DNA of 64,000 nt, taken from contig JBILVQ010000001.1 in assembly GCA_044370375.1 (NCBI GenBank), forward strand, positions 173-64,172, written 5' to 3'. Position 1 is the stretch's first letter; each line of letters opens with the position of its first letter. The notes under the pieces were generated by a model. That model saw only the letters and a program-made list of their open reading frames with translations, was not told where the DNA came from and ran no database searches. Positions 9,571 through 36,283 of this stretch are shown piece after piece. A program made the position numbers and the translations under genes. Source of the DNA: Bacteroidia bacterium. Its GTDB lineage: Bacteria > Bacteroidota > Bacteroidia > UBA4408.

Positions 9571-9723
9571 TTGATGTTTTCCTGTTTTTAGGAACGCAAA
9601 GTAACAAAAAATGATTGTAAAGGGGGCATTAATTTTGATAGTTTTTATCAAAAAATGTTTGTTTTTCGAAGAATTATTGCAACTTTGCGGGTCAACCCAA
9701 AAATGGGTGACTACCCATTGGTT

Positions 9724-9731
9724 TAGTTTTG
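9724..9731 (+). promoter_or_regulatory. Candidate -7 box (TAGTTTTG) for the giant adhesin gene. An inverted repeat ATGGGT-N4-ACCCAT lies nearby (about 9694-9709).
   Basis: A TAnnTTTG match lies about 26 nt upstream of the ATG at 9757. An adjacent 6-bp inverted repeat with a 4-nt spacer sits in the divergent Usp/adhesin intergenic region. These are motif matches only. Confidence 0.25.
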
Positions 9732-9756
9732 TACAATTAATCGAGGATTTCAGCAT

Positions 9757-12700
9757 ATGATGAACTTTAACCTGAAGTGTATTGCCAAAGAAAAATTCAT
9801 TCTCAAGAGTGTAATTTCTTGTTTTTTATGGGCATTTGCTTTTTCTGCCTTGCTTCTCAGCCCCAGAACTGCCGGTGCTACCGTCTTTAACGTGAATACG
9901 CTCGTGGATGGCGGTCCGGGCTCTCTAAGAGCCGCAATCCTGGCAGCCAACAATGATGGAACTGCTACTGCAGGTGCTCCGCATATTATCAATTTAACCG
10001 GACTCTCAGGAACCTTAACGCTTGATTCTGCCCTCAGAAATGTTGAAAACCACATCACTTTTAATGGTCCGTCCAACAACTCCTTAACCATCCGCAGAAA
10101 CCCCACAGCTCCCACTTTTTCTGTTTTCTTAATTAAACCCTTTTCTACACCAAACATCGTTGTTCGGATGAATAATTTAGTGGTTACAGAGGGTAATAGT
10201 TTAACCGGTGGAGGAATTTATGTGGAAGCTTCTACCCTTGTGATTAACCAGTGTCGTATTTTCCGAAACTTCTCAAGCAATGGTCTAGGCGGTGGTATTT
10301 GTATCAATGATGCGGAGGTGGAAATAAACAATTCCACCATTGATAATAACCGGAATTTGGCCGGTTTGGGTGGTGGTATTTACATGAATTTGGGTAGCCT
10401 CCTAATGAATAATTGTACGGTTTTCGGTAATCGTGCCTCCATTGGAGGAGGTATTGATAAGGCCGACATTGGGGCCATGGTCATCAATAACTGTACTTTT
10501 ACCAGAGACACTGCCGATGATATTGGTGGCGGTATTTACAATGATTTTGGTGTATTTGAATTGAACAACTCTATTGTTACTGGAAACCTTGGTGTTAATG
10601 GAGGAAATGATATTGTTCAGGGTGTTTTCTCCACTTTTGGTCATAATCTTATTGGGAATATCAATGGGGTGGTTTTCTTTGGTAACCAAACCGGAAACAC
10701 AGGTGCTGGCGTTAATGCTTCTTTTGTTTTAAATCAAACATTGGCCAACAATTCAGGTCCAACTCCAACCTGTGTGCTGGTGCCTTGCAGTCCGGCTATC
10801 GATAATGGAACCAGCAACGCTTATCCCTTACCCATCTCCTCTGCCACCGACCAAAGAGGAATCGTGCGGAGTAATTTCGGTACTGCTTTTGATATTGGCG
10901 CTGTAGAGTATAGCGGGCCTATTTCTTCCGATGTTTCAAGGTGTGGTCCGGGGCAGGTTACAATTACTGCATTTGCCGGCACCGCCTACCTTTGGTATGA
11001 TGCTCCAGTGGGTGGAAATTTGTTAGGTTTTGGCGCTAACTTTAACGTTAGTATTAACACTAGCACTACCATTTATTTGGCCGATTTTTTCAATGGTTGT
11101 GAATCAACAACAAGAATTCCTGTAAATGTAACCATCCTTCCCCTTGCTCCTCAACCTACAATTACACCCCTTGGGTCAACCACGTTTTGTGATGGAGGTT
11201 CTTTGGTGCTCGAGTCTAGTACTGATCCAACTTATGTGAGTTTTGATTGGGAGCCAGGAACAGGAACAGGACAAACCTTTCAGGTTACATCGGCCGGATC
11301 CTATACGGTTACCGTTGTAGATCTCAATGGATGTTCTGCAACCTCTAATCCGGTGCTTGTTACCGTTAATCCAAACCCTGTCCCGGTAATTACCTCAAGT
11401 GGTTCACTGAATTTGTGCAGTGGAACCACCGTTACTCTTGTTTCAAGCATCCCTTCAGGGAATTTGTGGAATACAGGTGAAACCAATGATAGTTTGGTAG
11501 TGAATACCGCAGGATCCTATTTTACCGTTGTAACCGATGCAAACGGATGCTCCGGCCAATCAAATACTATTGTTATTAATGCCGTTCCCGTTCCTCAAAC
11601 TCCTGTTATTTCTGCAAGCGGCCCTACAACTTTTTGTACCGGTGGTTCCGTTACACTTACTTCTAGCAGTGCAACCGGTAACCTTTGGGGACCCAATGGC
11701 GAAACAACACAAAGTATTGTTGTTAATACTTCCGGAACTTATTTTCTTACCGTTTCTGATGGCAATAATTGTGTTTCCGACACAGCTTTTGTTACCGTGG
11801 TGGTGAATAGTTTGCCCCAAGTTACGGTTAGTCCTGCCGGACCTGTAAACATTTGTCAGGGATCCTCTACGGTATTAACTTCCTCACAGCCTACTGGTAA
11901 TGTATGGTCTGATAATTCAACCGGAAACACGCTGACCGTGAGTGCTGCCGGAAGTTATTTTGTAACTTTTACTGACGGAAATGGTTGTTCTGCTGTTTCC
12001 AATACTGTCGTAGTTAATACAACAAACGCACCTACACCTCCGGTTATAACGGCCAATGGCCCGCTAACTTTCTGCGATGGCAATTCGGTAGTTCTTACAT
12101 CAAATATTGCTGCCAATATCTTGTGGTCAACGGGTGAAACAACGCAGTCCATCACCGTTGTCAATTCAGGCTCTTATACTGTTTCGGTAACCGTTAACGG
12201 GTGTTCCTCCACTTCACAACCTGTAAACGTTACAGTTACCCCGGGCCCTGTTGCAGCAGTAATTACTCCTTCAGGACCAATAACCTTTTGTGCAGGGTCT
12301 TCTGTAACACTTACTTCAGATATTGCCTCAGGCATTTTATGGTCAACCGGTGAAAGTACACAGTCAATTGTGGTTAATGCCTCCGGTTCCTATACCGTTT
12401 CAGTTACCGATGGCTCTGGTTGTACAACCGAATCTTTGCCGGTGGTAGTAACGGTTAATCCTTTGCCTACAACACCGGTCATTACTCCGTCAGGTCCTAC
12501 AACTTTCTGTTTTGGTCAAAGTGTAACGCTCACTTCTAGTTCGGCAACAGGTAATGTTTGGTCAACCGGCGAAACCACGCAATCTATTGTGGTAAGTAGT
12601 ACGCAGGTTATTACGCTAACCGTAACAGATAATAATCTTTGTTCTTCTACTTCCTTGCCTCTATCCATAACGGTCAACCCCCTTCCTCAAACACCAACCA

Positions 12701-15700
12701 TTACCCCCGGAGGTAATCCAACCTTTTGCTTAGGTGAATCAATTACCCTTACGTCAAGTCCTGCGGTTTCCTATTCATGGAGTCCTTCGGTTGGAACTTC
12801 TCAAACCATTACTGTCATTGCCAGTGGTTCCTATACGGTTACCATTACAGATATTAATGGCTGTACTGCTACTTCTAACCCATTTGCAGTTAATGTAAAC
12901 CAACCAACCCCTGTCAGCATTACAGGAGATAATACATTTTGTCAAGGTTCAACGGCTAATCTTTCAGCCAGTGCAGGTGTTTCCTGGCTGTGGTCAACAG
13001 GACAAACAACTCAAAATATCAGCGTTGCTCAAAGTGGTTCCTACACAGTGGAGATAATTGATGCGAACGGTTGTGCCTCTGTTTCTGCTCCCTTTGTTGT
13101 AACTGAATTATTGACGCCTAATCCTGTAGTAAACCCTGCAGGACCTATTCAGGCTTGTTCCAATGAGACGGTGGTTCTTACTTCCTCATTTGGTTCAGGG
13201 AATGTTTGGAGCAATGGTGAAACCACACAATCCATCAATGTTACTAGCTCTGGTAGTTATTTTACCGTAATCACCGGTAACAATGGTTGCATTGGCACCT
13301 CCAATATTGTAGAGGTAATTATTCTTCCGGCACCAACAGCCCCTGTGGTTACATCTTCAGGCTCAACCAATATTTGCACAGGATCATCTGTAACCCTTAC
13401 CTCAGATGTTGCAACAAATATTATTTGGAATACTGGTGAAACTACTCCTTCCATCAATGTTTCCCTTTCAGGTTCATATTTTGTTACTGTTACCGCTCCA
13501 AATGGATGTTCTTCTTCTTCTATTCCTGTAACCGTAGTGGTTGATCTTCCTCCTGCGGCACCCTTATTGCCAAGTCCAGTTTCACAATGTGGCGGCATCG
13601 TCACCCTTGATGCTGGTGCAGTAAATGCCGGTACCAGCTATTTGTGGAGTACTGGGGAAACAACCCAAACCATTGCGGTGAATGTTTCCGGAAATTATTT
13701 CGTTACCCTCACCAACAATTGTGGATCGGTAAATAGTAATACGGCTGTTGTTACTATTTTGCCTGTGCCGGTTGCTCCAATAATAACAGCGAATGGACCT
13801 ACCACTTTTTGTCAGGGTGGATCTGTTGATCTAACTTCTGATGTAGCTAGCAATATTCTGTGGAACAACGGTTCCAATGCTCAAACCATTTCGGTGAACC
13901 AAACAGGAAATTATTTTGTGGTGTTTACCGACGCGAATGGTTGCACTGCTGCCTCTAATGGTATTGATGTTATTGTTGATATTCCATTGCTTGCACCTGT
14001 TTTACCTACCAATATTAGCCAGTGTGGCGGTGGTTTGGTTTTAGATGCCGGTTTCTTTGGTGGTAGCACCAGCTATTTGTGGAGTACAGGAGAAACAACG
14101 CAGACCATTACCGTTAATGCTACAGGAACCTATTCTGTTGAAGTAACCAATGCTTGTGGTACAGTGACTTCAAACCTTGCCGATATCACCATTATTCCTT
14201 TGCCTCCTGCACCCGTAATTACTGCCAACGGGCCAACCACCTTTTGTCAGGGAGGTAGTGTTACACTTACCAGCAGTGCCCTAAGCAATAATCTTTGGAG
14301 CAATGGCGAAACAACACAATCCATTCTTGTTAATCAATCAGGAAATTATTCTGTAACCATTGCCGGTGTTAATGGTTGCTCCAGCAGTTCAAACACCATT
14401 ACCGTGATTGTCGACATCCCTCCGGTTGCTAGCAATTTGGGAGGTCCTTATGTACAATGCGGAGGTACAGTAACCCTTGATGCCGGAAATTCAGGTGGTT
14501 CAACCACCTTTTTATGGTCAAACGGTGAAACCACTCAAACGATAAATGTTGCCACCTCCGGTAATTATCAGGTAGTAATCACAAATTCTTGTGGATCGGT
14601 TACCAGTACAGTAGCTTTAGTTACCATTGAACCAGTACCTCCGGTTCCATCCATCCTTCCTAACGGCCCTGCTACCTTCTGTCAGGGAGGTCAGGTAACC
14701 TTAACCGCCTCTGTTGATCCATCTGTTGTTTCTTTGTTATGGAGTACAAGTGAAACTTCTAACTCCATTTCAGTAGCCACAACAGGCTCCTATACTGTTA
14801 CAGCATTTTCTGCCAATGGCTGCAGTGCAACCTCTTTACCAACAATTGTAACGGTTGATTTTCCTCCTGTTGCTCCAAATTTGGGTGGACCTTATAACCA
14901 ATGTGGAGGAACCGTGTTTTTGGAAGCCAATTTCTTTGGAGGATCCACCACCTATTTATGGAGCAATGGTGAAACAACACAAAGTATACTTGCAGCTACT
15001 TCCGGAAATTATTCGGTTACCATTACCAATTCATGTGGTTCTGTTACCAGTGCTCCTGCAACAGTAATCATTAATCCTTTGCCAACAACCCCATTAATCT
15101 CTGCCTCCGGGCCAACCAATTTTTGTCAAGGAGGCTCTGTTGATTTATCTGTGATTTTTGATCCATCGGTGACGTCTGTTTTATGGAGCACAGGTGAAAC
15201 CACAAACACTATTACGGTTTCAACCGGTGGAAGCTACTTTGTTACCGTTTTTGGTGCCAATAATTGCTCAAGCACCTCGGCACCAATAAATGTTAATGTT
15301 AACACGCTTCCAGTAAGCCCTGTATTGCCTGCAAGTATAAGCCAATGCGGTGGGTCGGTTACCCTCGATGCCGGTCCTGTGCAGCCCGGTAGCGTTTATG
15401 CATGGTCTAATGGCGAATCTACCCAAACAATTACGGTAACCGCCTCAGGAAACTATTTTGTTACCATCATTAATGCTTGTGGAACTGCTCTAAGTAATGT
15501 TTCACAGGTTGAAATTCTACAAGCACCTCCTGCACCTTTAGTAACAGCTTCTGGTCCTACCACTTTCTGTCAAGGAGCTTCTGTTGATTTGACTGCGAGC
15601 TTTTCGAATAACATCATTTGGAATACAGGAGAAACCACCCAAACAATTTCTGTAAGTCAATCAGGAAATTATTTTGTGGTTTTCACTGCTGCGAATGGTT

Positions 15701-18700
15701 GCACTTCATCTTCAATACCGGTTACTGTGATTGTTGATTTACCTCCGGTTGCACCCGTTTTACCACCAAGTATCACTCAATGCGGTGGTTCTGTTACGCT
15801 TGATGCCGGTTCTTTGGGAGGAAGTACTTCTTATTTATGGAGTAATGGGGCTACCACTTCTTCTATTACTGTTACCGTAAGTGGTAGTTATTCTGTTTTG
15901 GTTAGTAATTCATGCGGAACAGTTCTTTCAAATGTTTCTGTTGTTACGATTGAACCATTACCTCCGGCACCGGTTGTTACAGCCGGCGGACCAACAACCT
16001 TTTGCCAGGGAGGATCGGTAACCTTGAACAGTGATGTTTCTACCGGTATTGTATGGAGTAATGGTTCAACCGACCCTTCCATTGTTGTGTCGCAATCAGG
16101 CAACTATTTCGTAAGTGTAATTTCTGCAAATGGTTGTTCAAACTCTTCTAATATTGTTACCGTAATTGTTGATGTTCCGCCAACCGCACCCAATTTAGGC
16201 GGACCTTATGTTCAGTGCGGAGGACAGCTTACACTTTCGGCCGGTATACTGGGTGGAAGTACTACCTATTTATGGTCTAATGGTGAAACTACCCCTTCTA
16301 TTTCTGTAAACCAAAGCGGAAATTACAGTGTGGTGGTTACCAATTCTTGTGGAAGTGTAACAAGTACAACAGCAAATGTTACCATTAACCCCTTGCCAAC
16401 AACTCCAACCATTCAGGCCAACGGACCTATTTCATTTTGTGAGGGAAGCTCGGTTGATCTAACAGCGATTGTTGACAATACAGTGCTGGGATTGACTTGG
16501 AATACGGGAGAAACTACCAACACCATAACCGTTGATACATCAGGAGCCTATTTTGTAACTGTTTTTGGTGCCAACAATTGCAGCGCATCATCACTTCCGG
16601 TTACGGTTTCTGTTGATACGCTACCTACAGCTCCTGATTTAGGTGGACCCATCACCCAATGTGGTGGTACGGTAACCCTTGATGCAGGTTTCTTTGGAGG
16701 ATCTACGAATTATTTGTGGAGCAATGGTGAAACAACGCAAACAATTGTTGTAACCAGCTCTGGTTTATACTCCGTTGCCATCAGCAATAGTTGTGGTTCG
16801 GTCATTAGCAATCCTGTTGTAATTAATATTGAAACGCCTCCTGCTACACCTGTAATAGTGCCGAGCGGACCGCTTGATATTTGTTTAGGTTCTTCGGTTG
16901 ATTTAACCATCAATCCCGACCCAACAGTGGTTGCGGTATTGTGGAGCACAGGTGAAACCACCAACACCATCACCGTAAGTTCTGCTCAAGCAATATTTGT
17001 GACCGTAACCGATGCGAACGGTTGCTCAAGTATTTCTTTAACTGTCAATGTTAATGTGGATAATCCTCCGGTGGCCGTTGTTTTGCCGGATACCGTTGAT
17101 CAATGCGGTGGAACAGTAACCCTGGATGCAGGCTTGATTCCTTCCGGCTCAACCTACTTATGGAGCACCGGTGAAACAACCCAAACCATTGTGGTTGCAA
17201 ATAGTGGGGTTTTTAATGTTTCAGTTATTAATTCTTGTGGAACAGCCCTTAGTAATGATGTAGTAGTAAATTTGTTAGCTGCACCACCAATTCCAACCAT
17301 TACAGCATCTGGTCCTACAACCTTTTGTGTAGGTGATTCTGTGGGATTAACCGTGAGTAACGATCCTTTGGTAACTTCAATTCTTTGGAGTACCGGAGAA
17401 ACTACGCCTACCATTTTTGCTTCCACTCCCAATGCTTTAACCGTAACGGTTTCTTACGCCAACGGATGCAGCAGTTCTTCTTTACCAACCAGCATTGTGG
17501 TCCAAAACCCGCCGGTAGCGGCAGTTCTGGGTGGGCCATTTACTCAATGTGGAGGCACCTTAACACTCGATGCAGGTGTTATTCCTCCAGGAAGTGTTTA
17601 TGCTTGGAGCAATTCTGAAACAACGCAAACCATTACCGTATCGCAATCAGGAAATTATTTTGTTACCATTTCTAATTCCTGTGGTTCGATAACGAGTGAC
17701 ACAGCTGACGTAATCATTAATCAATTACCCAACACGCCTTTAATTACAAGCAGCGGTCCAACTACTTTCTGTATTGGAGACTCGGTGGTTTTGACCAGTA
17801 GTAATCCAAATAATAACCTTTGGTCGAATGGTCTAACAACCCAAAGTATTACGGTAGATACGGCCGGAACCTTCACTGTTTCTGTGGTTTCTGCCCCTGG
17901 ATGTTCAGCAACCTCCAATCCCATTACCATCGTGGTTCAAAATCCACTGGTGGCAGTTAATTTAGGTGGAGATGTTAATGAATGTGGCAGCAATGTAGTA
18001 TTGAATGCCGGCAATCCCGGATCAACATACACATGGACCGACCTTACAGGAAATAACATTTTAAGTCCGACCCAATCAGTAACCCTCGTTAATAGCGGCT
18101 TTGTTTTTGTTGTGGTAGAAAACGCTTGTAATAGTGTAACTTCCGATACCATTACAGTAACCATCAATGCATCCCCTGCCACTCCGGTAATTAATGTAAC
18201 CGGTTCGCTTACTTTCTGTGAAGGCGATTCTGTTTTGTTGGTTGCTTCTGGAGGCTCTTCTGTTGATTTAATAAACAACGGTGACTTTTCTTCCGGTGCC
18301 AATGGTTTCGTGTCTGACTACAATTTTTCTAACAACCTTATACCAGAGGCCACTTATAATGTGGGTCCGGATGCATCGGTTTTCCACCCCTCCTTTAATG
18401 GGTCAGGAAACAATGGAGGAAATTTTCTTGTAGTTAATGGCTCTTCCACACCGGGACAATCGGTATGGTCGCAAACCGTGAGTGTGCAACCAGGTGCATC
18501 TTATGATATTGGTCTTTTCCTCTCTTCTATGGTGGCCGGAAATCCTGGCGAGATTCAATTGAGAGTAGACGGAATAGACGTAGGTGCGGTGATGAACTGC
18601 CCTGGATCTATCAACACATGGGTTCCCTTTACACAAACGTGGACTGCAGGAGTTTCGCCTTTTGCCAATTTATCATTGCATAGTATGAGTTCAACTTCAG

Positions 18701-20964
18701 GTGGAAATGATTTTGGAGTTGACGATATCACCATGAATTGTACCAATTGTTCCTCTGTTGCCAACTATGTTTGGAGCAATGGTGCAACAGGTGATTCATT
18801 GGTTGTTGATAGTTCAGGCACTTATACAGTTTCCATTGTCAATGGCTTGAACTGTTCTGCAACTTCACAACCCGTTACCGTGATTGTGAATTTGTTGCCA
18901 CAAATTCCTGCATTTGCCGATACTACTCAATGTGGAGGTAGCATCACTTTGGATGCCGGAAATCCAGGTGCTACTTATCTTTGGTCGAATGGTCAAACTA
19001 CACAAACCATTGTGGTTTCATCAACTTCCGCCAATGTTTTTGTAGCCATTACCAACTCCTGCGGTACCGTTTCCTCTGATACGGTAGATGTAACCATTAA
19101 CGCTATTCCGGTGTTTGACCTTGGTGGTCCATACGATATTTGTAATGGTGGCTCGGTTACGCTTGATCCGGGAATTGCTGGTTTAACGTATGATTGGAGT
19201 ACTTCAGAAACCACACAAAGCATCTCTGTTAGCACAGCAGGTAATGTGATTCTGACTGTTACAAATCCTTTGACCGGATGTAACTTTACCGATACCGCGG
19301 TTGTTAACGTTAACTTCCCTCCGGTTGTAAATTTAGGACCAGACATTGTACAGTGTGGAGGAACGGTAATTTTAGATGCACAGAACCCGGGCTCAACTTA
19401 TTTGTGGTCAAGTGGCGAAACAACACAAACCCTTTCCTTGACAGGTACTCAGGTAACCACTGTTTCGGTTACTGTTACCAATACATGCGGAACTACTGTT
19501 AGTTTGCCAATTACGGTAGATATTCGCCCTGCACCAAGTCCTGCCTTTATTGTGGCCGGTGGTCCAACCACTCTTTGTGAAGGAGATTCTGTAGAATTAT
19601 TCGCCAGCCCCGGAACATCCTATATATGGGCACCGGGTGGTGAAACAACCAATTCCATCACGGTTGGTGTTTCGGGCACTTATGGAGTAACGGTTATTGA
19701 TGGAAATGGTTGTCCGTCCATCGCACCTGCTGTAGTGGTGGATGTATTGCCATTGCCTGGTGTACCAGCTATTATTACTGCAAACGGACCAACGACCTTT
19801 TGCCTTGGCGGTTCCGTTACTTTGAGTTCAGCTAGCTTAACAGGAAATACCTGGTTGCCATCCGGTAATACGAATAATGCCATAACCGTATTCAATGGCG
19901 GCCCTGTAGTATTAGTTGTTACTGCACCAAATGGATGTTCTTCGGTTTCTGATACGGTGGATGTAATTGTAAATTTCCCACCTCCAGCCTTTGTTGTTGT
20001 TAATGGAAATCCTAATCTGTGTTTAGGGGATTCATTGGTGTTAACAGCAAACAATGGTCAAGGCTTTACCTACTTATGGTCACCCGGTGGACAAACAAGC
20101 CCGTCCATTTCGGTTGCTGCGGCTGGAGACTACACTGTAACAGTAACTGATACGAATAATTGTTCTTCTACCTCCATTGCAACCAATGTGGTTTCGATAA
20201 CTCCACCTCCTATTCCGGTAATTAGTTCCTCAGGGGCTTTGGCTTGCTTTACAGGAAGTGTAACACTTTCTGCAAGTGGTCAGGGCGACTTTGTTTGGTC
20301 TAACGGTCTTGTTGGGTCAGTGGTAGAGGTAAATCAACCGGGAGATTATTTTGTGACGGTAACCAACACATTCTCTTGTTCATCGGTATCAGATACCATA
20401 ACCCTAGTTCCTTCCAAGGATATGAGTGTTACATTGAGTAGTCCGGTTTATGAAAGCAACCAGAAAAATATTCGTTGTTTCGAAGGATCGGATGGGGTAA
20501 TTGAAGCCAAAGTAGAAGGTGGTTACGAACCATTTACCTACGCTTGGTCTAATGGAGCCACCACAGCCAAAATTGAAGGGGTTAAAGGAGGGAATATTGA
20601 TTACGTGGTAACGGTAACAGATGCCTATGGTTGTACAGCAACCCAAACTATTCAACTTACCACTCCGGAAAATCCTTTGGAACAGACGCCTCAGGGCTTC
20701 TCGCCTGATGGTAATGGAGTTAACGATAAGTTTATCATTCCAGGAATTGAGTCTTATTCAAATGTAAAGATTTGGATTTATAATCGTTGGGGCAATGAAC
20801 TGTATCAGGTAAATGGAACTTACAATACAGAAAATGCTTGGGATGGAACCGGACCCAACGGAAGCCAGTTACCTGATGGAACTTACTTCATGGTACTTGA
20901 AGCAGAATCACCTGAATGTGGCACCATTGCTACACAACGTTACATTGAACTTAGAAGGAAATAA
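9757..20964 (+). CDS. Giant (3735 aa) SprB-like cell-surface adhesin, a T9SS type-B cargo. Its order of parts is signal peptide, parallel beta-helix domain, about 41 Ig-like repeats (one carrying a nested CBM4/9-like domain), a SprB repeat, and a CHU_C/type-B C-terminal domain.
   Basis: The signal peptide is MMNFNLKCIAKEKFILKSVISCFLWAFAFSALLL. Aa ~40-385 carry GGGIY/GGGIC beta-helix repeats ending in DQRGIVR...DIGAVEY. Aa ~385-3560 carry repeats of about 80 aa with two conserved Cys (..GPTTFCQGGSV.LTS...LWSNGETTQSI.V..SGNY.V.....NGCSS.S). The SprB-repeat motif is CFEGSDGVIEAKVEGGYEPFTYAWSNGA. The C-terminus (FSPDGNGVNDKFIIPG...YNRWGNELYQ...DGTYFMV) matches the gliding-motility-associated C-terminal domain / T9SS type-B CTD. 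Confidence 0.85.
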   Translation: MMNFNLKCIAKEKFILKSVISCFLWAFAFSALLLSPRTAGATVFNVNTLVDGGPGSLRAAILAANNDGTATAGAPHIINLTGLSGTLTLDSALRNVENHITFNGPSNNSLTIRRNPTAPTFSVFLIKPFSTPNIVVRMNNLVVTEGNSLTGGGIYVEASTLVINQCRIFRNFSSNGLGGGICINDAEVEINNSTIDNNRNLAGLGGGIYMNLGSLLMNNCTVFGNRASIGGGIDKADIGAMVINNCTFTRDTADDIGGGIYNDFGVFELNNSIVTGNLGVNGGNDIVQGVFSTFGHNLIGNINGVVFFGNQTGNTGAGVNASFVLNQTLANNSGPTPTCVLVPCSPAIDNGTSNAYPLPISSATDQRGIVRSNFGTAFDIGAVEYSGPISSDVSRCGPGQVTITAFAGTAYLWYDAPVGGNLLGFGANFNVSINTSTTIYLADFFNGCESTTRIPVNVTILPLAPQPTITPLGSTTFCDGGSLVLESSTDPTYVSFDWEPGTGTGQTFQVTSAGSYTVTVVDLNGCSATSNPVLVTVNPNPVPVITSSGSLNLCSGTTVTLVSSIPSGNLWNTGETNDSLVVNTAGSYFTVVTDANGCSGQSNTIVINAVPVPQTPVISASGPTTFCTGGSVTLTSSSATGNLWGPNGETTQSIVVNTSGTYFLTVSDGNNCVSDTAFVTVVVNSLPQVTVSPAGPVNICQGSSTVLTSSQPTGNVWSDNSTGNTLTVSAAGSYFVTFTDGNGCSAVSNTVVVNTTNAPTPPVITANGPLTFCDGNSVVLTSNIAANILWSTGETTQSITVVNSGSYTVSVTVNGCSSTSQPVNVTVTPGPVAAVITPSGPITFCAGSSVTLTSDIASGILWSTGESTQSIVVNASGSYTVSVTDGSGCTTESLPVVVTVNPLPTTPVITPSGPTTFCFGQSVTLTSSSATGNVWSTGETTQSIVVSSTQVITLTVTDNNLCSSTSLPLSITVNPLPQTPTITPGGNPTFCLGESITLTSSPAVSYSWSPSVGTSQTITVIASGSYTVTITDINGCTATSNPFAVNVNQPTPVSITGDNTFCQGSTANLSASAGVSWLWSTGQTTQNISVAQSGSYTVEIIDANGCASVSAPFVVTELLTPNPVVNPAGPIQACSNETVVLTSSFGSGNVWSNGETTQSINVTSSGSYFTVITGNNGCIGTSNIVEVIILPAPTAPVVTSSGSTNICTGSSVTLTSDVATNIIWNTGETTPSINVSLSGSYFVTVTAPNGCSSSSIPVTVVVDLPPAAPLLPSPVSQCGGIVTLDAGAVNAGTSYLWSTGETTQTIAVNVSGNYFVTLTNNCGSVNSNTAVVTILPVPVAPIITANGPTTFCQGGSVDLTSDVASNILWNNGSNAQTISVNQTGNYFVVFTDANGCTAASNGIDVIVDIPLLAPVLPTNISQCGGGLVLDAGFFGGSTSYLWSTGETTQTITVNATGTYSVEVTNACGTVTSNLADITIIPLPPAPVITANGPTTFCQGGSVTLTSSALSNNLWSNGETTQSILVNQSGNYSVTIAGVNGCSSSSNTITVIVDIPPVASNLGGPYVQCGGTVTLDAGNSGGSTTFLWSNGETTQTINVATSGNYQVVITNSCGSVTSTVALVTIEPVPPVPSILPNGPATFCQGGQVTLTASVDPSVVSLLWSTSETSNSISVATTGSYTVTAFSANGCSATSLPTIVTVDFPPVAPNLGGPYNQCGGTVFLEANFFGGSTTYLWSNGETTQSILAATSGNYSVTITNSCGSVTSAPATVIINPLPTTPLISASGPTNFCQGGSVDLSVIFDPSVTSVLWSTGETTNTITVSTGGSYFVTVFGANNCSSTSAPINVNVNTLPVSPVLPASISQCGGSVTLDAGPVQPGSVYAWSNGESTQTITVTASGNYFVTIINACGTALSNVSQVEILQAPPAPLVTASGPTTFCQGASVDLTASFSNNIIWNTGETTQTISVSQSGNYFVVFTAANGCTSSSIPVTVIVDLPPVAPVLPPSITQCGGSVTLDAGSLGGSTSYLWSNGATTSSITVTVSGSYSVLVSNSCGTVLSNVSVVTIEPLPPAPVVTAGGPTTFCQGGSVTLNSDVSTGIVWSNGSTDPSIVVSQSGNYFVSVISANGCSNSSNIVTVIVDVPPTAPNLGGPYVQCGGQLTLSAGILGGSTTYLWSNGETTPSISVNQSGNYSVVVTNSCGSVTSTTANVTINPLPTTPTIQANGPISFCEGSSVDLTAIVDNTVLGLTWNTGETTNTITVDTSGAYFVTVFGANNCSASSLPVTVSVDTLPTAPDLGGPITQCGGTVTLDAGFFGGSTNYLWSNGETTQTIVVTSSGLYSVAISNSCGSVISNPVVINIETPPATPVIVPSGPLDICLGSSVDLTINPDPTVVAVLWSTGETTNTITVSSAQAIFVTVTDANGCSSISLTVNVNVDNPPVAVVLPDTVDQCGGTVTLDAGLIPSGSTYLWSTGETTQTIVVANSGVFNVSVINSCGTALSNDVVVNLLAAPPIPTITASGPTTFCVGDSVGLTVSNDPLVTSILWSTGETTPTIFASTPNALTVTVSYANGCSSSSLPTSIVVQNPPVAAVLGGPFTQCGGTLTLDAGVIPPGSVYAWSNSETTQTITVSQSGNYFVTISNSCGSITSDTADVIINQLPNTPLITSSGPTTFCIGDSVVLTSSNPNNNLWSNGLTTQSITVDTAGTFTVSVVSAPGCSATSNPITIVVQNPLVAVNLGGDVNECGSNVVLNAGNPGSTYTWTDLTGNNILSPTQSVTLVNSGFVFVVVENACNSVTSDTITVTINASPATPVINVTGSLTFCEGDSVLLVASGGSSVDLINNGDFSSGANGFVSDYNFSNNLIPEATYNVGPDASVFHPSFNGSGNNGGNFLVVNGSSTPGQSVWSQTVSVQPGASYDIGLFLSSMVAGNPGEIQLRVDGIDVGAVMNCPGSINTWVPFTQTWTAGVSPFANLSLHSMSSTSGGNDFGVDDITMNCTNCSSVANYVWSNGATGDSLVVDSSGTYTVSIVNGLNCSATSQPVTVIVNLLPQIPAFADTTQCGGSITLDAGNPGATYLWSNGQTTQTIVVSSTSANVFVAITNSCGTVSSDTVDVTINAIPVFDLGGPYDICNGGSVTLDPGIAGLTYDWSTSETTQSISVSTAGNVILTVTNPLTGCNFTDTAVVNVNFPPVVNLGPDIVQCGGTVILDAQNPGSTYLWSSGETTQTLSLTGTQVTTVSVTVTNTCGTTVSLPITVDIRPAPSPAFIVAGGPTTLCEGDSVELFASPGTSYIWAPGGETTNSITVGVSGTYGVTVIDGNGCPSIAPAVVVDVLPLPGVPAIITANGPTTFCLGGSVTLSSASLTGNTWLPSGNTNNAITVFNGGPVVLVVTAPNGCSSVSDTVDVIVNFPPPAFVVVNGNPNLCLGDSLVLTANNGQGFTYLWSPGGQTSPSISVAAAGDYTVTVTDTNNCSSTSIATNVVSITPPPIPVISSSGALACFTGSVTLSASGQGDFVWSNGLVGSVVEVNQPGDYFVTVTNTFSCSSVSDTITLVPSKDMSVTLSSPVYESNQKNIRCFEGSDGVIEAKVEGGYEPFTYAWSNGATTAKIEGVKGGNIDYVVTVTDAYGCTATQTIQLTTPENPLEQTPQGFSPDGNGVNDKFIIPGIESYSNVKIWIYNRWGNELYQVNGTYNTENAWDGTGPNGSQLPDGTYFMVLEAESPECGTIATQRYIELRRK
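10909..20440 (+). repeat. In-frame tandem array of about 41 Ig-like repeats of about 80 aa (~240 bp) inside the adhesin gene. In the central roughly 13 pairs, two repeat sub-types alternate as A/B, giving a ~480-bp super-repeat.
   Basis: The protein-level periodicity can be read directly. Type A repeats read GPTTFCQGGSV.LTSD....I.WNTGETT..I.V..SGNYFV.....NGC.SSS. Type B repeats read QCGG.VTLDAG..GGST.YLWSNGETTQTI.V...GNY.V...NSCG.V.S. The DNA copies are diverged, at roughly 65-75% identity by eye, and no exact long DNA repeats were seen. Confidence 0.75.
18262..18750 (+). other. CBM4/9-like (galactose-binding-like jelly-roll) domain nested inside an Ig-like repeat of the adhesin
   Basis: A segment of about 163 aa (VDLINNGDFSSGANGF...SVWSQTVSVQPGASYDIGLF...NDFGVDDITMNC) interrupts a repeat between its first half (TFCEGDSVLLVASGG) and its second half (SSVANYVWSNGATGDSLVV...NCSATS). 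The NGDF...W...G.Y......DD..M/L pattern resembles CBM_4_9. Confidence 0.5.
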
Positions 20965-20969
20965 TCAGA

Positions 20970-21932
20970 ATGAAAAGGAAAATGCAGCAACACAATAAAT
21001 ATCTTTTCATGAAAAGGATAGCAGCACTAATTGCAGTCTTGATGCTTACCTCAGGGGCACTAAAAGCTCAGCAGGATATCATGATAAGCCAATATATGTT
21101 TAACGGATTATTTTTGAATCCTGCCTATGCCGGTTCGCATAAATACATGGGAGCAAGTTTGCTTCACAGGCGTCAGTGGGTAAATTTCCCTGGGGCACCT
21201 GTTACCAGTATTTTTGCAATCGACGGGCCTTTGGCCAACAGAAGAATGGGCTGGGGAATGATGGTGGCAACAGAGAAAATTGGAGCTACCAGCCAAACAG
21301 ATTTATTTGGTAATTATTCCTACAACATTCCATTAGCGAAAGGAAAACTTTCTTTTGGTTTAAGAGCAGGAGGGTCATTGGTAACCGCAAATCTGGCACA
21401 GTTAAAAACTGTAGAAAGCGGAGATGAGGCTTTTGCAACCAATATCCGTTCAAAGTTCCTTCCCAAATTTGGTGCAGGGGTTTATTATTATGCTAAGATG
21501 TTCTATGCAGGTATCTCTGTTCCAACGCTGGTTGCTTACGACTCAAAAAGGGACTTTAGTTTCGATGTTTCAAAATCTTCAAGTGTAAGAAATCATACCT
21601 TCTTAACAGCGGGCTATGTATTTGTCGTTAATCCAATGGTTAAACTAAAGCCTTCGGTTTTGGTGAAATATCAGCCGGCAGCTCCTGTACAGGCAGATAT
21701 TAACCTTAATGTTTTGTTAAACGATGTACTATGGCTGGGAAGTTCTTTCCGCACAGGTGAATCTATTGTAGGTTTGGTTGAATATCAAATTAATCCAATG
21801 TTCAGAGTGGGTTATGCCTTTGATTACAACCTAACACAAATTCGTAAATTCTCAGCAGGTTCACACGAAATTATGCTTGGAATTGATTTTGGCCGTGATA
21901 TTCTGAAAACCAAGAACCCTCGATTCTTTTAA
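20970..21932 (+). CDS. Type IX secretion system membrane protein, PorP/SprF family
   Basis: The signal peptide is followed by the family N-terminal signature QQDIMISQYMFNGLFLNPAYAG. The length of about 300 aa is typical of an outer-membrane beta-barrel. It lies immediately downstream of a type-B CTD cargo gene (6-nt gap). The true start is probably the internal Met at about 21009 (MKRIAALIAVLML...). Confidence 0.8.
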   Translation: MKRKMQQHNKYLFMKRIAALIAVLMLTSGALKAQQDIMISQYMFNGLFLNPAYAGSHKYMGASLLHRRQWVNFPGAPVTSIFAIDGPLANRRMGWGMMVATEKIGATSQTDLFGNYSYNIPLAKGKLSFGLRAGGSLVTANLAQLKTVESGDEAFATNIRSKFLPKFGAGVYYYAKMFYAGISVPTLVAYDSKRDFSFDVSKSSSVRNHTFLTAGYVFVVNPMVKLKPSVLVKYQPAAPVQADINLNVLLNDVLWLGSSFRTGESIVGLVEYQINPMFRVGYAFDYNLTQIRKFSAGSHEIMLGIDFGRDILKTKNPRFF

Positions 21933-21935
21933 TTT

Positions 21936-23861
21936 TTGAAATCTGACATGAAATTCCCACTTCCAAGAACGATTCTCCTTGCTGCCATTCTCCTGCTTTC
22001 TTTGTCAGGATGTACCAGATACTACATTAGCCAGGGGAACAAAAATTTTGATGCACTTGCTTATTATAAAGCTGCACAGTTTTACGAAAAAGCTGTGGCC
22101 AAAAAGCAAGACCCGAAAGCATTAACCAATCTTGCCGTTTGCTATCGTTCTATGAACGAATACAAAAAAGCAGAGGATACTTATGCAAAAGTTGTTGCAC
22201 TTCCGGGTGTAGATCCAATGCATACTTTGTCGTACGCAAAGGTTTTAATGAACAATGGAAAAACCGAACAAGCTGCTGAACAGTTAAAGAATTATCTAAA
22301 GCTAAAGCCAACTGACTCCAGTGCTGAAATGCTTTTACGTTCTTTAAATGAGCGCAATACCATGATGAAGGATACCACCCAATGGTCTTTGACCGCGGTA
22401 AAAATGGGAGGTATTCAAGAGTTTTTTAGTCCGGTTAGATATAAGGATGGTTATATTTTTTCTGCCACCGGTGAGGCTTCTAAAACAGAGGCCAATCCAT
22501 CAACAGGAAAAGGTTATTACGATTTGTATTTTGTAAAGCAAGATGCTTCAGGCAATTTTGGTACGCCTGCTAAATTAGAAGGTCATATCAATGGTAAATT
22601 ACATGATGGGATGGCTGCTGTGGTACCGGGAGGAAATGAACTTTATTATACCACCACCAATGATGAAGGACTGAACGAGGAGGAACGATACGAAAAAGTA
22701 ATCGGTTTAAAAATTCAGAAGGATGTAATGAAAGACGGAAAGTGGGAGAAAGCCGAAGATTTTCCGCACAACAGCGGGGATTATTCTACAGGACATCCTA
22801 CACTCACCTATGATGGTAAAACCATGTATTTTATTTCGGATAAACCGGGAGGTAGCGGAGGCACTGATATATATTCTACCAAATTGGTAAATGGTGCATG
22901 GTCTGCTCCTGAAAATTTGGGTTCATTGATTAATACTCCTGAAAATGAAATGTTTCCGTATGTGGACAGTTTAGGCAATTTGTATTTTTCAAGTTTCGGT
23001 CATAAAACCATGGGCGGCTTGGATGTATTTGTTTGCAAAAACGAAATGGGAAAACTCTCTCCACCGGTGAACCTTAACTATCCATTGAACTCAAGTAAGG
23101 ATGACTTTAGTTTCTCTATTGACAATAACGGAACCCGTGGTTTAGTTTCTTCCAATCGTTCAGGAACAGATAAAATTTATTCCTTTACAAAGAACCCGGC
23201 AAAAATTGAAGTAACCGGAACCGTAAGCAGCAAAGTTGATGGCAAGCCATTGGCCAATGTTAAAATTGATATTTCAGATAAAATGGGTGGTTCAACGGTA
23301 ACGGTTTATACCGATGAAGCAGGGAATTACAAGGCTGTTTTGGAGTCGGAAAAGGAATTTGAATTTTCAGTATCCAAAGACGGATATTTTGCGCAAACTG
23401 CAACGGTAAGTACAAAAGGAAAGAAAGACAACCTAAAACAGGATTTTGTGTTGGATGAGTTGGTAATTGATAAGCCTGTGGTAATTGACCAAAGCGAAGA
23501 TCCCAACAAACCAAGACCTATTTTCTTTGACTTCGATAAATGGGATATCAGGCCTGATGCTTACGAAAATCTGAACAAATTAGTGAAGCTGTTGAAGGAT
23601 AATCCGAAGGTTAATATTGAACTAAGTTCGCACACCGATTGTAGAGGAACTGATTCTTACAATCAGAAACTATCTGAAAGAAGAGCCAAGTCAACTGCCA
23701 AATATCTTACGGAAAAGGGTATCAAATCCAAGAGAATCAAGTCAAAAGGTTACGGTGAAAGAAAATTGGTGAATAAATGTGCTGATGGAGTACCGTGTTC
23801 AACTGAGGAGCATCAGGAAAACAGAAGAACCGAATTCAAAGTAATCAGTGTTGACAAATAA
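21936..23861 (+). CDS. OmpA-family lipoprotein with TPR repeats, a TolB-like beta-propeller region and a C-terminal OmpA/MotB peptidoglycan-binding domain
   Basis: A lipobox is present (LLLSLSGC). The N-terminal third carries TPR-like repeats. The middle carries WD40/TolB-like repeats (MYFISDKPGGSGGTDIYS..., LYFSSFGHKTMGGLDVF). The OmpA-domain C-terminus reads FDFDKWDIRPDAYENLNKLVKLL...ELSSHTDCRGTDSYNQKLSERRAKSTAKYL. Confidence 0.8.
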   Translation: MKSDMKFPLPRTILLAAILLLSLSGCTRYYISQGNKNFDALAYYKAAQFYEKAVAKKQDPKALTNLAVCYRSMNEYKKAEDTYAKVVALPGVDPMHTLSYAKVLMNNGKTEQAAEQLKNYLKLKPTDSSAEMLLRSLNERNTMMKDTTQWSLTAVKMGGIQEFFSPVRYKDGYIFSATGEASKTEANPSTGKGYYDLYFVKQDASGNFGTPAKLEGHINGKLHDGMAAVVPGGNELYYTTTNDEGLNEEERYEKVIGLKIQKDVMKDGKWEKAEDFPHNSGDYSTGHPTLTYDGKTMYFISDKPGGSGGTDIYSTKLVNGAWSAPENLGSLINTPENEMFPYVDSLGNLYFSSFGHKTMGGLDVFVCKNEMGKLSPPVNLNYPLNSSKDDFSFSIDNNGTRGLVSSNRSGTDKIYSFTKNPAKIEVTGTVSSKVDGKPLANVKIDISDKMGGSTVTVYTDEAGNYKAVLESEKEFEFSVSKDGYFAQTATVSTKGKKDNLKQDFVLDELVIDKPVVIDQSEDPNKPRPIFFDFDKWDIRPDAYENLNKLVKLLKDNPKVNIELSSHTDCRGTDSYNQKLSERRAKSTAKYLTEKGIKSKRIKSKGYGERKLVNKCADGVPCSTEEHQENRRTEFKVISVDK

Positions 23862-23982: not shown

Positions 23983-24699
23983 ATGATAAAAAGGAAAGAT
24001 CAAGCACATGTGGATTGTCATCATTGTGACTCAAGATTCAAATCTGTTTTTTGCGACCTCGCCTCTGAGGAATTGGAGGCCTTAAACAACCATAAATCTT
24101 GTTCCCAGATTAAAAAAGGACAGGTGATTTTTAATGAAGGATTTCACCCGCATGGAATTTATTGCGTTAACAGTGGGAAAATCAAGGTTTCTCAAATGGG
24201 CGATGCAGGTCGCGAGCACATTGTACGTCTTGCAAAGGATGGCGATATTTTAGGTTATCGTGCGGTTTTGAGTGGTGATAAATATTCTTGTTCAGCAATT
24301 GCTTTAGATGACTGTAATATTTGTTTTGTGCCCAAGGAAGTATTTTTGGGTATGGTACAAAGAGATGTTTCGCTTTCAATGAGCATGATGCGATTGCTCT
24401 CCGACAACCTAAAGCAAGCCGAAACGAGAATAACCGAAATGGCCCAGAAACCGGTGCGTGAAAGATTGGCTGAATCCATATTGTTCCTGAAAGAAACTTA
24501 TGGCTATGAAACCGGTACCAACATTCTTAATGTAACCATGTCGCGGGAGGAGCTTGCCAACATGACAGGAACGGCAACCGAAACCGCCATACGATTACTT
24601 TCGGAGTTAAAATCCGATGGAATTATTGAGCTAACAGGAAAGAAAATTGGCATATTAGACCATTCTAAACTGGTTAAAACCGCCAACTTGTTTGATTAG
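23983..24699 (+). CDS. Crp/Fnr-family transcriptional regulator with an N-terminal Cys cluster (FNR-like)
   Basis: A cNMP-binding-like beta-roll is present in the middle. The C-terminal HTH is REELANMTGTATETAIRLLSELKSDGII. The N-terminus carries Cys at positions 12, 15, 24 and 40 (VDCHHCDSRFKSVFC...HKSC), reminiscent of an FNR Fe-S ligand set. Confidence 0.8.
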   Translation: MIKRKDQAHVDCHHCDSRFKSVFCDLASEELEALNNHKSCSQIKKGQVIFNEGFHPHGIYCVNSGKIKVSQMGDAGREHIVRLAKDGDILGYRAVLSGDKYSCSAIALDDCNICFVPKEVFLGMVQRDVSLSMSMMRLLSDNLKQAETRITEMAQKPVRERLAESILFLKETYGYETGTNILNVTMSREELANMTGTATETAIRLLSELKSDGIIELTGKKIGILDHSKLVKTANLFD

Positions 24700-24794
24700 C
24701 ACTGTTTAACATGATAAAAATCATGTTTTCTATTGACCCTTATCATTCTAATCATTTATAATTGAAGCTAAGTTTGCTGAGATTAATTCAGTAA

Positions 24795-25355: not shown

Positions 25356-25370
25356 TATTGTTAAGCCCAA

Positions 25371-36233: not shown

Positions 36234-36283
36234 GAATTTTTATTCAAAGTTAAGCCTTACCATCAATAGTATTTGTCCCCAAT

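Follow-up and report, generated by a model that had tools for sequence, protein, structure and literature searches.

In the P. gingivalis PorE-PorP-PG1035 complex, PorP binds the type-B cargo and PorE bridges the assembly to peptidoglycan (PMC9143113). The PorP-cargo complex also assembles without PorE, and in this species both genes are described as single-copy core parts of the T9SS needed for type-A cargo, with PG1035 being a small protein of about 50 kDa. The published layout of PorE comprises four domains, TPR, WD40 beta-propeller, CRD and OmpA_C (PMC12773672), and the peptidoglycan-binding residues D576 and N584 in the OmpA_C domain are required in the P. gingivalis protein. F. johnsoniae, in turn, has five or six operons of a type-B cargo gene, a porP-like gene and a porE-like gene (PMC9143113, PMC12618676), and this order of genes is already published and not new. 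Among them, the cargo Fjoh_3952 depends on the shuttle Fjoh_3951, adjoins the PorE-like Fjoh_3950 and forms static foci only (PMC12618676), and a tether to the cell wall via a PorE homologue has already been proposed for an F. johnsoniae operon (PMC12618676; PMC9143113). The SprB-SprF system of F. johnsoniae has no adjoining porE-like gene; a Cys-X-Cys motif in the C-terminal tail of SprF bonds to GldK, for which C324 and C326 are needed, with a disulfide formed between Cys326 and GldK Cys343 (PMC12635249).

The locus described here consists of three ORFs, all on the + strand, in the order cargo, porP-like and porE-like (9757-20964, 20970-21932 and 21936-23861; 3735, 320 and 641 aa), exactly at the positions and sizes given in a first-pass annotation, and the window, i.e. 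the whole 64-kb stretch of DNA analysed, contains a single porP-like and a single porE-like gene. The locus is likened to Fjoh_3952/Fjoh_3951/Fjoh_3950 and to Fjoh_1645-1647 by gene order and family content rather than by sequence, and differs from the F. johnsoniae operons in the beta-helix head, 41 Ig_7 modules and nested CBM-like domain of its cargo and in its host, which belongs to an uncultured lineage (best species-level match 51%, Wandonia 45%). [quoted passage not shown] As in SprB-SprF, a giant repetitive type-B CTD cargo with a SprB repeat is followed by a PorP/SprF-family gene, but Ig_7 modules, not SprB repeats, make up the passenger, and the PorP-like protein is devoid of both Cys and tail. 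Finally, the third protein matches over its full length the family of OmpA-like 'outer membrane integrity' proteins named after C. hutchinsonii CHU_0125 (NF053607), although with a score under the equivalog cut-off. The preferred reading, with a probability of roughly 75%, is that the three genes make up one operon for a surface fibre that is static and attached to the cell wall.

The features of the locus are:

9571..9756, no strand: AT-rich divergent intergenic region 5′ of the cargo gene
9757..20964, +: cargo gene, T9SS type-B substrate, 3735 aa; acidic, mature form ~374 kDa, pI 4.05
9757..9879, +: Sec signal peptide, aa 1-41, from inspection of the translation; N-terminus conserved in orthologue P0242
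9877..10920, +: head formed by a right-handed parallel beta-helix, aa 41-388; PMP-like turns, GGGI[YC]
10903..20415, +: stalk of 41 Ig_7-type modules, aa 383-3553; PF19081 and self-built HMM
18274..18726, +: CBM-like jelly-roll domain, aa 2840-2990 (~150 aa), nested within Ig module 34
20416..20676, +: SprB-repeat module, aa 3554-3640, immediately N-terminal to the CTD
20677..20964, +: type-B T9SS C-terminal sorting domain, aa 3641-3735 and stop codon; PF13585, TIGR04131
20970..21932, +: PorP/SprF-family outer-membrane beta-barrel, PF11751 and TIGR03519; predicted cognate shuttle/anchor
21936..23861, +: PorE-like lipoprotein; TPR ~33-135, PD40 beta-propeller ~150-420, CRD 426-508, OmpA_C-like 530-638 (641-aa numbering)

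Organization of the probable operon

The operon promoter probably sits in the intergenic stretch 5′ of the cargo ORF. The divergent Usp ORF on the − strand is over-extended, as the conserved Usp sequence runs from Met63 (MNPIGNTIIVPTDFS) with its ATG at about 9570, and the Pfam Usp match starts only at residue 69. The intergenic region contains an inverted repeat with a 7-bp stem (a hairpin, 9702-9719) and two TAnnTTTG matches (9630-9637 and 9724-9731); since this motif is not enriched across the window (71 found vs 77 expected), the two matches are promoter candidates only. The three genes are closely spaced, with a gap of 5-44 nt between the cargo and porP-like genes, depending on the start, and of 15 nt between the porP-like and porE-like genes, the latter probably starting at ATG 21948, and the junctions are kept in the orthologue. 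The distance of within 6 nt initially reported for the first junction holds for the longest porP-like ORF (5 nt), but the true start is probably Met14 (21009), leaving 44 nt, because TIGR03519 aligns from residue 14 and residues 1-13 match the orthologue at 7/13, against 90% overall.

The cargo protein

The signal peptide of the cargo has a K-rich n-region and a 16-aa hydrophobic core, VISCFLWAFAFSALLL, as judged by inspection and not with a dedicated predictor, and is probably cleaved at AGA↓TV, in line with the initial assignment. It would be lost in the JGI gene calls, which begin at Met138 and give 3598 aa. The head that follows was likewise correctly recognized as a beta-helix cap: its AF2 model has a pLDDT of 90.1 and a pTM of 0.92, and Foldseek retrieves right-handed beta-helices, with Rhombotarget A on top (E 1e-8, TM 0.61-0.64) and PL6, pectate lyases and tailspikes next. 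The head is closed by a choice-of-anchor Q domain (aa 328-385; NF041518, 56.1 bits), and many of its 848 homologues carry PF13229 or PF02415.

The stalk comprises the approximately 41 Ig-like repeats noted earlier, as a self-built HMM finds one weak module (383-463), 32 further ones (464-2806), one that is split and seven more (3045-3553), and PF19081 scores 172 bits. Each module is about 73 aa long with two conserved Cys spaced 44-47 residues apart, and from around aa 1120 to 2800 the modules alternate in an a/b super-repeat of ~146 aa. The cargo gene is without DNA tandem repeats, and paralogous modules are ~41% identical, compared to 79% for orthologous ones. The HMM match of module 34 is interrupted, being split into 2807-2846 and 2980-3047, and the domain inserted between them had been missed in the first-pass annotation. 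The Pfam scan gave no match to it, while its family numbers 3523 representative clusters, and sub-threshold CBM_4_9 matches occur in the relatives. The AF2 model of the nested domain (pLDDT 94.4) resembles in Foldseek the EclA lectin, CBM22, CBM4, CBM16 and CBM35, with TM ≤0.67, and the domain is conserved in six relatives (P0242, P0258, P0259, L001, L013 and L036). On the basis of these models, both the head and the CBM-like domain might bind ligands.

The same two domains raise the question of whether the passenger could mainly be a polysaccharide-degrading or -processing enzyme, displayed or released, in which the head would be catalytic and the CBM-like domain would serve in targeting. The Foldseek matches of the head do include the PL6 alginate lyase, pectate lyases, a rhamnogalacturonan lyase and phage depolymerase tailspikes, and the nested domain is similar to CBMs found together with glycoside hydrolases. 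However, the lyase matches are weak (E ≥1e-3, TM ≤0.5), the searches made here gave no functional information on the top match Rhombotarget A, the Pfam and NCBIfam scans matched no catalytic family, and a stalk of 41 modules fits reach and adhesion better than catalysis. An enzymatic passenger therefore appears unlikely, and it could still be secreted and tethered by the mechanism proposed below.

At the C-terminus, a SprB repeat was indeed found at approximately aa 3568-3602, where PF13573 reaches 39.3 bits against a cut-off of 28; this is the single match in the cargo and is visible only with the C-terminal segment scanned alone. The cargo was considered as an orthologue of SprB (Fjoh_0979) and rejected as such from its domain content, i.e. 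one PF13573 match and a passenger of Ig_7 modules. The check set beforehand for a type-B CTD gave both expected families above their cut-offs, PF13585 (CHU_C) with 69.7-74.7 bits (cut-off 27) and TIGR04131 with 44.1 bits (cut-off 35), at aa 3644-3718, while the type-A model PF18962 reaches just 13.2 bits. By the CTD and the signal peptide read from its sequence, the cargo is assigned to the T9SS type-B CTD substrates.

The PorP/SprF-like protein

The 320-aa protein belongs to the PorP/SprF family as proposed, with 260.9 bits to PF11751 (cut-off 22.3) and 269.1 bits to TIGR03519 (cut-off 90.55) over model positions 1-292 of 292, and no non-PorP assignment emerged. The protein contains zero Cys and has no periplasmic C-terminal tail, terminating at the barrel with ...KNPRFF, and an [ST]PR[YF]F terminus is common to nearly all of its 68 + 80 relatives. 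None of these 68 + 80 sequences, sets that included no SprF-type positive control, has the Cys-X-Cys tail of SprF. The protein was rejected as an SprF-type gliding carrier for its lack of Cys-X-Cys, a motif documented only for SprF and close homologues.

These features bear on the possibility of a SprB-like cargo, a mobile adhesin used in gliding, with a PorP-like protein that acts as SprF and rides the GldJKN track. Such a role would follow the sprB-sprF gene logic of a giant repetitive type-B cargo with one SprB repeat and a PorP/SprF-family neighbour, but it is highly improbable. First, without Cys and a C-tail the SprF-style Cys326-GldK Cys343 disulfide is impossible, even if the shuttles of other mobile cargo may couple to the track in another way. 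Next, the operon encodes a PorE-like tether, whereas published mobile cargo is not encoded with a PorE-like gene and the PorE-linked Fjoh_3952 is seen as static foci only. Finally, the single PF13573 match leaves the cargo without SprB orthology. Of the two alternatives originally offered, a gliding or an adhesion filament, the adhesin is thus favoured, in the form of a static one tethered to the cell wall, and gliding is disfavoured.

The PorE-like lipoprotein

The third gene was correctly described as an OmpA-family lipoprotein with TPR, propeller and OmpA domains, yet it is specifically PorE-like and not generic, sharing the four-domain PorE layout with a CRD that had been overlooked. By inspection, its signal MKFPLPRTILLAAILLLSLSG↓C ends in the lipobox LSLSG↓C, with the Cys kept as SGC in the family consensus, and Pfam places TPR_19 at 45-87, PD40 at 286-313, CarboxypepD_reg at 426-506 and OmpA at 530-617. 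The protein aligns over its full length with both T9SS_PorE (NF052230, 393.6 bits, cut-off 600) and CHU_0125 (NF053607, 415.9 bits, cut-off 620), the latter being the best-scoring NCBIfam model; as both scores are below the cut-offs, it is filed as a PorE-like paralogue and not PorE itself, with its partners assigned by analogy.

The best PDB match of the OmpA domain is the PorE C-terminal domain (6TOP, E 1e-24), in which SHADrkgpdAYN of PorE aligns with SHTDcrgtdSYN of the present protein. The peptidoglycan-binding Asp and the Asn eight residues on, equated with P. gingivalis D576/N584 by the +8 spacing and the motif and not by deposited numbering, are invariant among 13 diverse family members (alignment A1). 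The suggested tethering to peptidoglycan is consistent with this conservation and with the placement of the protein, but the role is not a novel one, being present in the literature (PMC9143113).

Proposed model of the tethered fibre

The analysis established the families to which all parts belong, the kept gene order, purifying selection, the retained peptidoglycan-binding residues, the missing cysteine motif of SprF and the predicted folds of the head and of the nested domain. On the genetic linkage of the genes, the secretion of the cargo via the T9SS and a cognate PorP/SprF-like shuttle is predicted, and the contacts among the proteins, the immobility of the fibre and its role in adhesion are inferred by analogy with the described systems. 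In the proposed model, Sec would export the 374-kDa cargo, which would fold in the periplasm with approximately one disulfide per Ig module, and the T9SS translocon would recognise its type-B CTD. The cognate PorP/SprF-like barrel would then take up the cargo and hold it at the cell surface via the CTD. The periplasmic PorE-like lipoprotein would bind the barrel, probably by its beta-propeller, with its OmpA_C domain attached to peptidoglycan, and the fibre would as a result be fixed and not carried on the gliding track. The PorE-like protein itself may be unneeded for display, given the PorE-free PorP-cargo complex in P. gingivalis. The stalk would measure on the order of 100-150 nm, and since the passenger combines the beta-helix head with a single CBM-like domain, the most likely job of the fibre would be binding to a glycan-rich surface or another cell.

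Conservation of the cassette

Directly upstream of the porE-like gene, a PorP-like gene is found in 65/76 assessable species-level loci, and where it is present, a type-B CTD lies further upstream in 59/60 assessable ones. Anchoring on PorP in metagenome loci gives a similar picture, with a PorE-like gene next in 55/64, a CTD upstream in 61/66 and the full triad in 45/55, and the order is also kept in the orthologous loci L081, L083 and L089-L094. The comparative synteny suggested as a check thus bears out the triad, in which PorP and PorE stay paired throughout while the cargo varies. The system is not lineage-specific as had been supposed, as the module recurs in Flavobacteriales, Sphingobacteriales, Cytophagales, Chitinophagales and Bacteroidales, and the passenger architecture alone is limited to close relatives.

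The synteny also bears on whether the PorP-like and PorE-like proteins are the general T9SS PorP and PorE of the host, with the giant protein merely a neighbour or a cap. The single PorP-PorE pair of P. gingivalis is needed for gingipain (type-A) secretion and also binds PG1035, which is the only type-B protein of that species and is dispensable, and the 64-kb window likewise holds one copy of each gene. Against this stand the 394 bits of the third gene compared with the PorE cut-off of 600, the highly variable type-B cargo that the pair accompanies in most genomes, and the cargo-specific nature of the F. johnsoniae cassettes. Furthermore, some genomes have several copies, as in a Tenacibaculum MAG with two PorE-family loci (L057 and L063) and in L077, where a type-B CTD precedes each of two PorP-like genes, and the PorE-family loci that lack an adjacent PorP gene, for the most part from Bacteroidales, are those that resemble the stand-alone core type. 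A general role in secretion is accordingly improbable, and the cargo-specific tethered fibre is the preferred reading.

A broader generalization, tentative and somewhat doubtful, is that PorP-PorE cassettes are a phylum-wide interchangeable 'static anchor' readable from sequence, and that the present locus is a lineage-restricted glycan-binding fibre. The signature of such an anchor would be a PorP-like barrel ending in [ST]PR[YF]F without a C-tail Cys and followed by a PorE-like gene, with the two parts occasionally fused, and a natural fusion of PorP_SprF and OmpA in one polypeptide was found in L005. If true, neighbouring genes could tell whether any given type-B adhesin is static or mobile, and an abundant uncultured bacterium would use the fibre for attachment to polysaccharide-rich particles or other cells, by way of its beta-helix head and its nested domain, whose large CBM-like family has no Pfam or NCBIfam match in these scans.

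Within the locus, dN/dS is 0.077 for the cargo, 0.035 for the porP-like and 0.028 for the porE-like gene, and the cargo gene is under purifying selection. Its orthologue in L081 is colinear, with 79% identity over 3004 aa in a gap-free alignment, and six independent metagenome copies have no indels in the cargo among them, the number of Ig modules being constant within the population.

Organization and proposed function of the locus

The first-pass annotation had described a giant adhesin, a PorP/SprF-family protein and an OmpA-like lipoprotein encoded in a row, and this observation is confirmed, with all three open reading frames lying where they had been placed. One domain nested within the adhesin had been missed, and a second T9SS cargo opens the window.

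28-1893, + strand: first ORF, a 621-aa T9SS type-A cargo with a PKD domain and a Por_Secre_tail (31.9 bits), unrelated to the giant cargo
9757-20964, + strand: giant T9SS type-B cargo, 3735 aa
18274-18726, + strand: nested domain of about 150 aa (cargo residues 2840-2990), inside Ig module 34
20970-21932, + strand: PorP-like protein, 320 aa
21936-23861, + strand: PorE-like protein, 641 aa

The locus most likely combines T9SS export of the cargo, its retention by the PorP-like protein and its immobilisation on peptidoglycan by the PorE-like protein. The cargo would be exported as a fibre of about 374 kDa, the cognate PorP-like barrel would capture and retain it, and the PorE-like lipoprotein would fix the fibre to peptidoglycan, while the beta-helix head and a CBM-like domain could supply glycan or surface binding. 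The checks proposed with the first-pass annotation all pass. The C-terminus of the cargo matches the type-B CTD models CHU_C PF13585 (69.7 bits, cut-off 27) and TIGR04131 (44.1 bits, cut-off 35), and the 320-aa protein matches the PorP/SprF models PF11751 (260.9 bits) and TIGR03519 (269.1 bits, cut-off 90.55) from end to end. The cargo signal peptide and the lipobox of the third protein are likewise present, as judged by visual inspection only.

Several start codons appear to need adjustment. The JGI records with a 3598-aa cargo begin at Met138, a start that would cost the protein its signal peptide and is probably an error of annotation; a module indel was considered for the difference from 3735 aa and rejected, as the choice of start codon is the sole difference. 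The PorP-like protein probably starts at Met14 (21009), where the TIGR03519 alignment begins; only 7 of its first 13 residues are conserved in the orthologue, compared with 90% identity overall. The third gene probably starts at ATG 21948.

Architecture of the cargo protein

The head of the cargo, earlier proposed to be a beta-helix cap, is borne out as such by several lines of evidence. NCBIfam places a choice-of-anchor Q domain at residues 328-385, and residues 41-388 have 848 homologues, among them proteins with PF13229 or PF02415. The AF2 model of the head (pLDDT 90.1, pTM 0.92) retrieves right-handed beta-helices in Foldseek, with Rhombotarget A as the best match (E 1e-8), followed by PL6 and pectate lyases and tailspikes. 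The papers found on Rhombotarget A mention it in passing or as a peptide-design target and offer no functional hint.

The stalk is marked by cysteine pairs 44-47 residues apart that recur about every 73 residues. An HMM built from the cargo modules finds one weak module (residues 383-463), 32 regular ones (464-2806), one that is split and seven more (3045-3553), giving 41, so that the previous estimate of about 41 Ig-like repeats was accurate. The SprB repeat is also present: a scan restricted to the final 195 residues gives PF13573 a score of 39.3 bits against a cut-off of 28. The model was not seen in the whole-protein Pfam scan, and the module is additionally covered by a partial match of the module HMM. 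The GC content of the gene, 0.44 vs about 0.38-0.41 in the flanks, is slightly raised, which fits the Thr/Ser/Val/Gly-rich composition of the protein.

The split module, Ig module 34, is interrupted by the nested domain, with the two parts matching HMM positions 1-30 and 26-72. In these scans the domain had no match among the Pfam and NCBIfam models, and a word-indexed homologue search found nothing; an exhaustive HMMER library search recovered a family of 3523 representative clusters at E<=1e-3, with one to seven copies per protein, often beside type-A or type-B CTDs, and with the signature NGDF...GGNDFG[LI]DD. The AF2 model (pLDDT 94.4) matches carbohydrate-binding jelly rolls, namely the EclA lectin, CBM22, CBM4, CBM16 and CBM35, with TM up to 0.67, and the predicted fold, a CBM-like jelly roll, is of high confidence. 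With its thousands of clusters, the family provides a modest lead for work on T9SS cargo ligands.

Stability of the module array

The module array appears to be stable. In L081, an orthologous locus whose PorE-like protein is 87% identical to that of the window, the cargo is exactly 3735 aa long and shares 79% identity with zero gaps over the 3004 residues available. Between the two loci the cargo has a dN/dS of 0.077, the PorP-like protein 0.035 and the PorE-like protein 0.028, all rough figures because dS is saturated. Paralogous modules within the cargo share only about 41% identity, and TRF detects no repeats in the DNA of the gene; the array is therefore old, with each module individually constrained. 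Recent repeat expansion or a phase-variable number of modules was considered and rejected, given the lack of TRF repeats, the gapless L081 orthologue and the absence of indels in six metagenome copies. These six copies (L089-L094) come from independent metagenome assemblies of the same population and show 0-2 mismatches in 9992 nt of the cargo gene; the exact window PorP-like protein is found in 61-62 index blocks of public metagenomes. When the same assemblies are compared with window positions 10970-31930, the 10968 nt after the cargo hold 8-20 mismatches, a SNP density about ten times that in the cargo gene. In more distant relatives the architecture is shared with fewer modules: P0258 and P0259, cargo homologues that keep the nested domain, have 34 and 32 Ig-like HMM matches compared with 42 in the window protein. 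A relative at the 59% level has a 4189-aa cargo.

The third gene encodes a PorE-like protein

The third protein had been described as an OmpA-family lipoprotein, and while the OmpA domain, TPR and propeller are indeed there, it is not a generic member of that family but specifically PorE-like. Its Pfam domains, TPR, PD40 propeller, CarboxypepD_reg and OmpA, reproduce the four-domain organization published for PorE. [quoted passage not shown] 2020, as cited in another paper). The segment SHTD...SYN aligns to SHAD...AYN of PorE, so that its Asp and, eight residues on, its Asn take the places of Asp576 and Asn584, both of which PorE needs in order to function; the two positions are invariant across an alignment of 13 diverse family members. 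The protein also aligns over its full length to NF052230 (T9SS PorE) at 393.6 bits and to NF053607 (CHU_0125 family) at 415.9 bits, both short of the curated cut-offs (600 and 620, respectively). Given the PorE layout, the 6TOP match, the retained Asp and Asn and the scores below the cut-offs, it is filed, as judged from sequence, as a PorE-like paralogue.

In P. gingivalis a PorE-PorP-PG1035 complex has been shown, in which PorP binds the type-B cargo and PorE is the bridge from PorP to peptidoglycan (Gorasia et al. 2022, PMC9143113). The same study notes that six porP-like genes of F. johnsoniae adjoin porE-like genes and that sprB-sprF is without such a neighbour, and proposes that PorP-PorE-like complexes anchor non-mobile type-B proteins. 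In F. johnsoniae, Fjoh_3952 depends on the shuttle Fjoh_3951 and gives static foci only, and the PorE-like Fjoh_3950 comes after it (Paillat et al. 2025, PMC12618676). Of this published model for static type-B adhesins the window locus is a clean example from nature. The triad and the tethering idea have therefore already been described, and the earlier remark that the tether falls outside the SprB/SprF paradigm is true in a narrow sense but overstates its novelty.

Static anchoring versus gliding

In SprF, a Cys-X-Cys motif in the C-terminal tail (C324/C326) forms a disulfide with C343 of GldK, which couples the carrier to the gliding track, and the motif is invariant among close SprF homologues (Liu et al. 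2025, PMC12635249). The PorP-like protein of the window contains no cysteine at all, and its chain stops at the barrel, the last residues being KNPRFF. Cys-X-Cys was found in none of 68 PorP-like proteins from the genome loci and none of 80 from the metagenome loci, nearly all of which end in [ST]PR[YF]F. A gliding role for the cargo had been left open; the cysteine-free PorP-like barrel, without Cys-X-Cys, and the PorE-like gene beside it speak against such a role and favour a static anchor. The motif is documented for SprF-type carriers only and both sample sets are without an SprF-type protein as a positive control, which leaves the published SprF data as the basis of the argument. A search for such a control found nothing in viral contigs, and in metagenomes it returned only the same PorP-like subfamily, with no member carrying the motif.

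Conservation of the PorP-PorE cassette

The arrangement of the three genes is not, as had been suggested, specific to this lineage, since PorE-like loci recur in Flavobacteriales, Sphingobacteriales, Cytophagales, Chitinophagales and Bacteroidales. A genome survey with the PorE-like protein alignment as query and one genome per species gave 80 loci. A PorP-like gene lies directly upstream on the same strand in 65 of the 76 that could be assessed (a further four are truncated too early to tell), and a type-B CTD ends just before it in 59 of the 60 loci with room. The 11 loci without an adjacent PorP, mostly from Bacteroidales, may represent stand-alone core PorE. In a second, PorP-anchored scan of metagenomes the PorE-like gene comes next in 55/64 loci, the CTD lies upstream in 61/66 and the full triad is present in 45/55, so the order of the triad is conserved in both surveys. 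The cargo, on the other hand, ranges in length between about 300 aa and over 3000 aa and is Ig_7-rich at only 26 of 64 loci, while the head and nested domain of the window protein are common to only the three closest loci. Since the cargo varied while the pair was kept, the PorP-PorE pair is a conserved cassette with an exchangeable passenger. The window comes from an uncultured Bacteroidota lineage, for which the best match at the level of one genome per species is 51%, with Wandonia haliotis at 45%.

A fused protein points the same way. In L005, one of the surveyed loci, a single 463-aa ORF (9719-11107, - strand) carries a PorP_SprF barrel (185.5 bits) and a C-terminal OmpA peptidoglycan-binding domain (77.7 bits), joining functions that are split between the second and third genes of the window. 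In another, L077, two PorP-like genes lie on the same strand (1437-2354 and 8849-9763, +), each preceded by a type-B CTD, and PorP cassettes can apparently occur in tandem.

The core of the first-pass interpretation was right, although it understated the specificity and known status of the third gene, left gliding open and was wrong on lineage specificity. Nothing here challenges the current understanding. Where the published static-adhesin model drew on a few F. johnsoniae operons, the survey extends it to many Bacteroidota species, and the small additions are the breadth of synteny, the PR[YF]F ending without cysteines in PorE-linked barrels, the PorP-OmpA fusion and the widespread nested CBM-like domain. 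For the annotation of giant Bacteroidota surface proteins this yields a rule, a conserved PorP-like/PorE-like anchoring cassette with an exchanged passenger, together with testable sequence markers: a C-tail without cysteines, a PR[YF]F terminus and an adjoining PorE-like gene.

Genomic surroundings

No further PorP-like gene, PorE-like gene or type-B CTD occurs in the 64-kb window. Both flanks consist of ordinary chromosomal genes, those upstream being for FAD synthetase, an LRR protein, a two-component system and Usp. The divergent Usp ORF (8737-9756, - strand) is over-extended by about 62 codons and in that form would abut the cargo ATG; its conserved sequence begins at Met63, and a start there frees 186 nt of AT-rich intergenic sequence (9571-9756) for a promoter. 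No sigma-70-like site was found upstream of the cargo, TAnnTTTG is not enriched in the window, no terminator was found after the third gene, and Rfam and tRNA scans of the window returned nothing. The divergent intergenic region contains a perfect inverted repeat with a 7-bp stem, AATGGGT GACT ACCCATT (9702-9719), 38 nt upstream of the cargo ATG, which could be an operator. An antisense ORF of 135 aa (9750-10157, - strand) overlaps the 5′ end of the cargo gene.

Downstream, the operon is followed by genes for a Crp-family regulator, hemerythrin and Usp (23983-26204, + strand), then LysRS and, further on, IleRS, NusA, IF-2 and ribosomal proteins. The first three are likewise found after the operon in L081 (12031-14258) and are absent there in L083, a 59% relative, so they reflect local synteny outside the operon module. 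Elsewhere in the window, at 35586-39301 (- strand), a hybrid sensor kinase of 1005 aa that carries Reg_prop and Y_Y_Y domains adjoins a LuxR-type response regulator, an architecture typical of the polysaccharide-sensing regulators of Bacteroidota.
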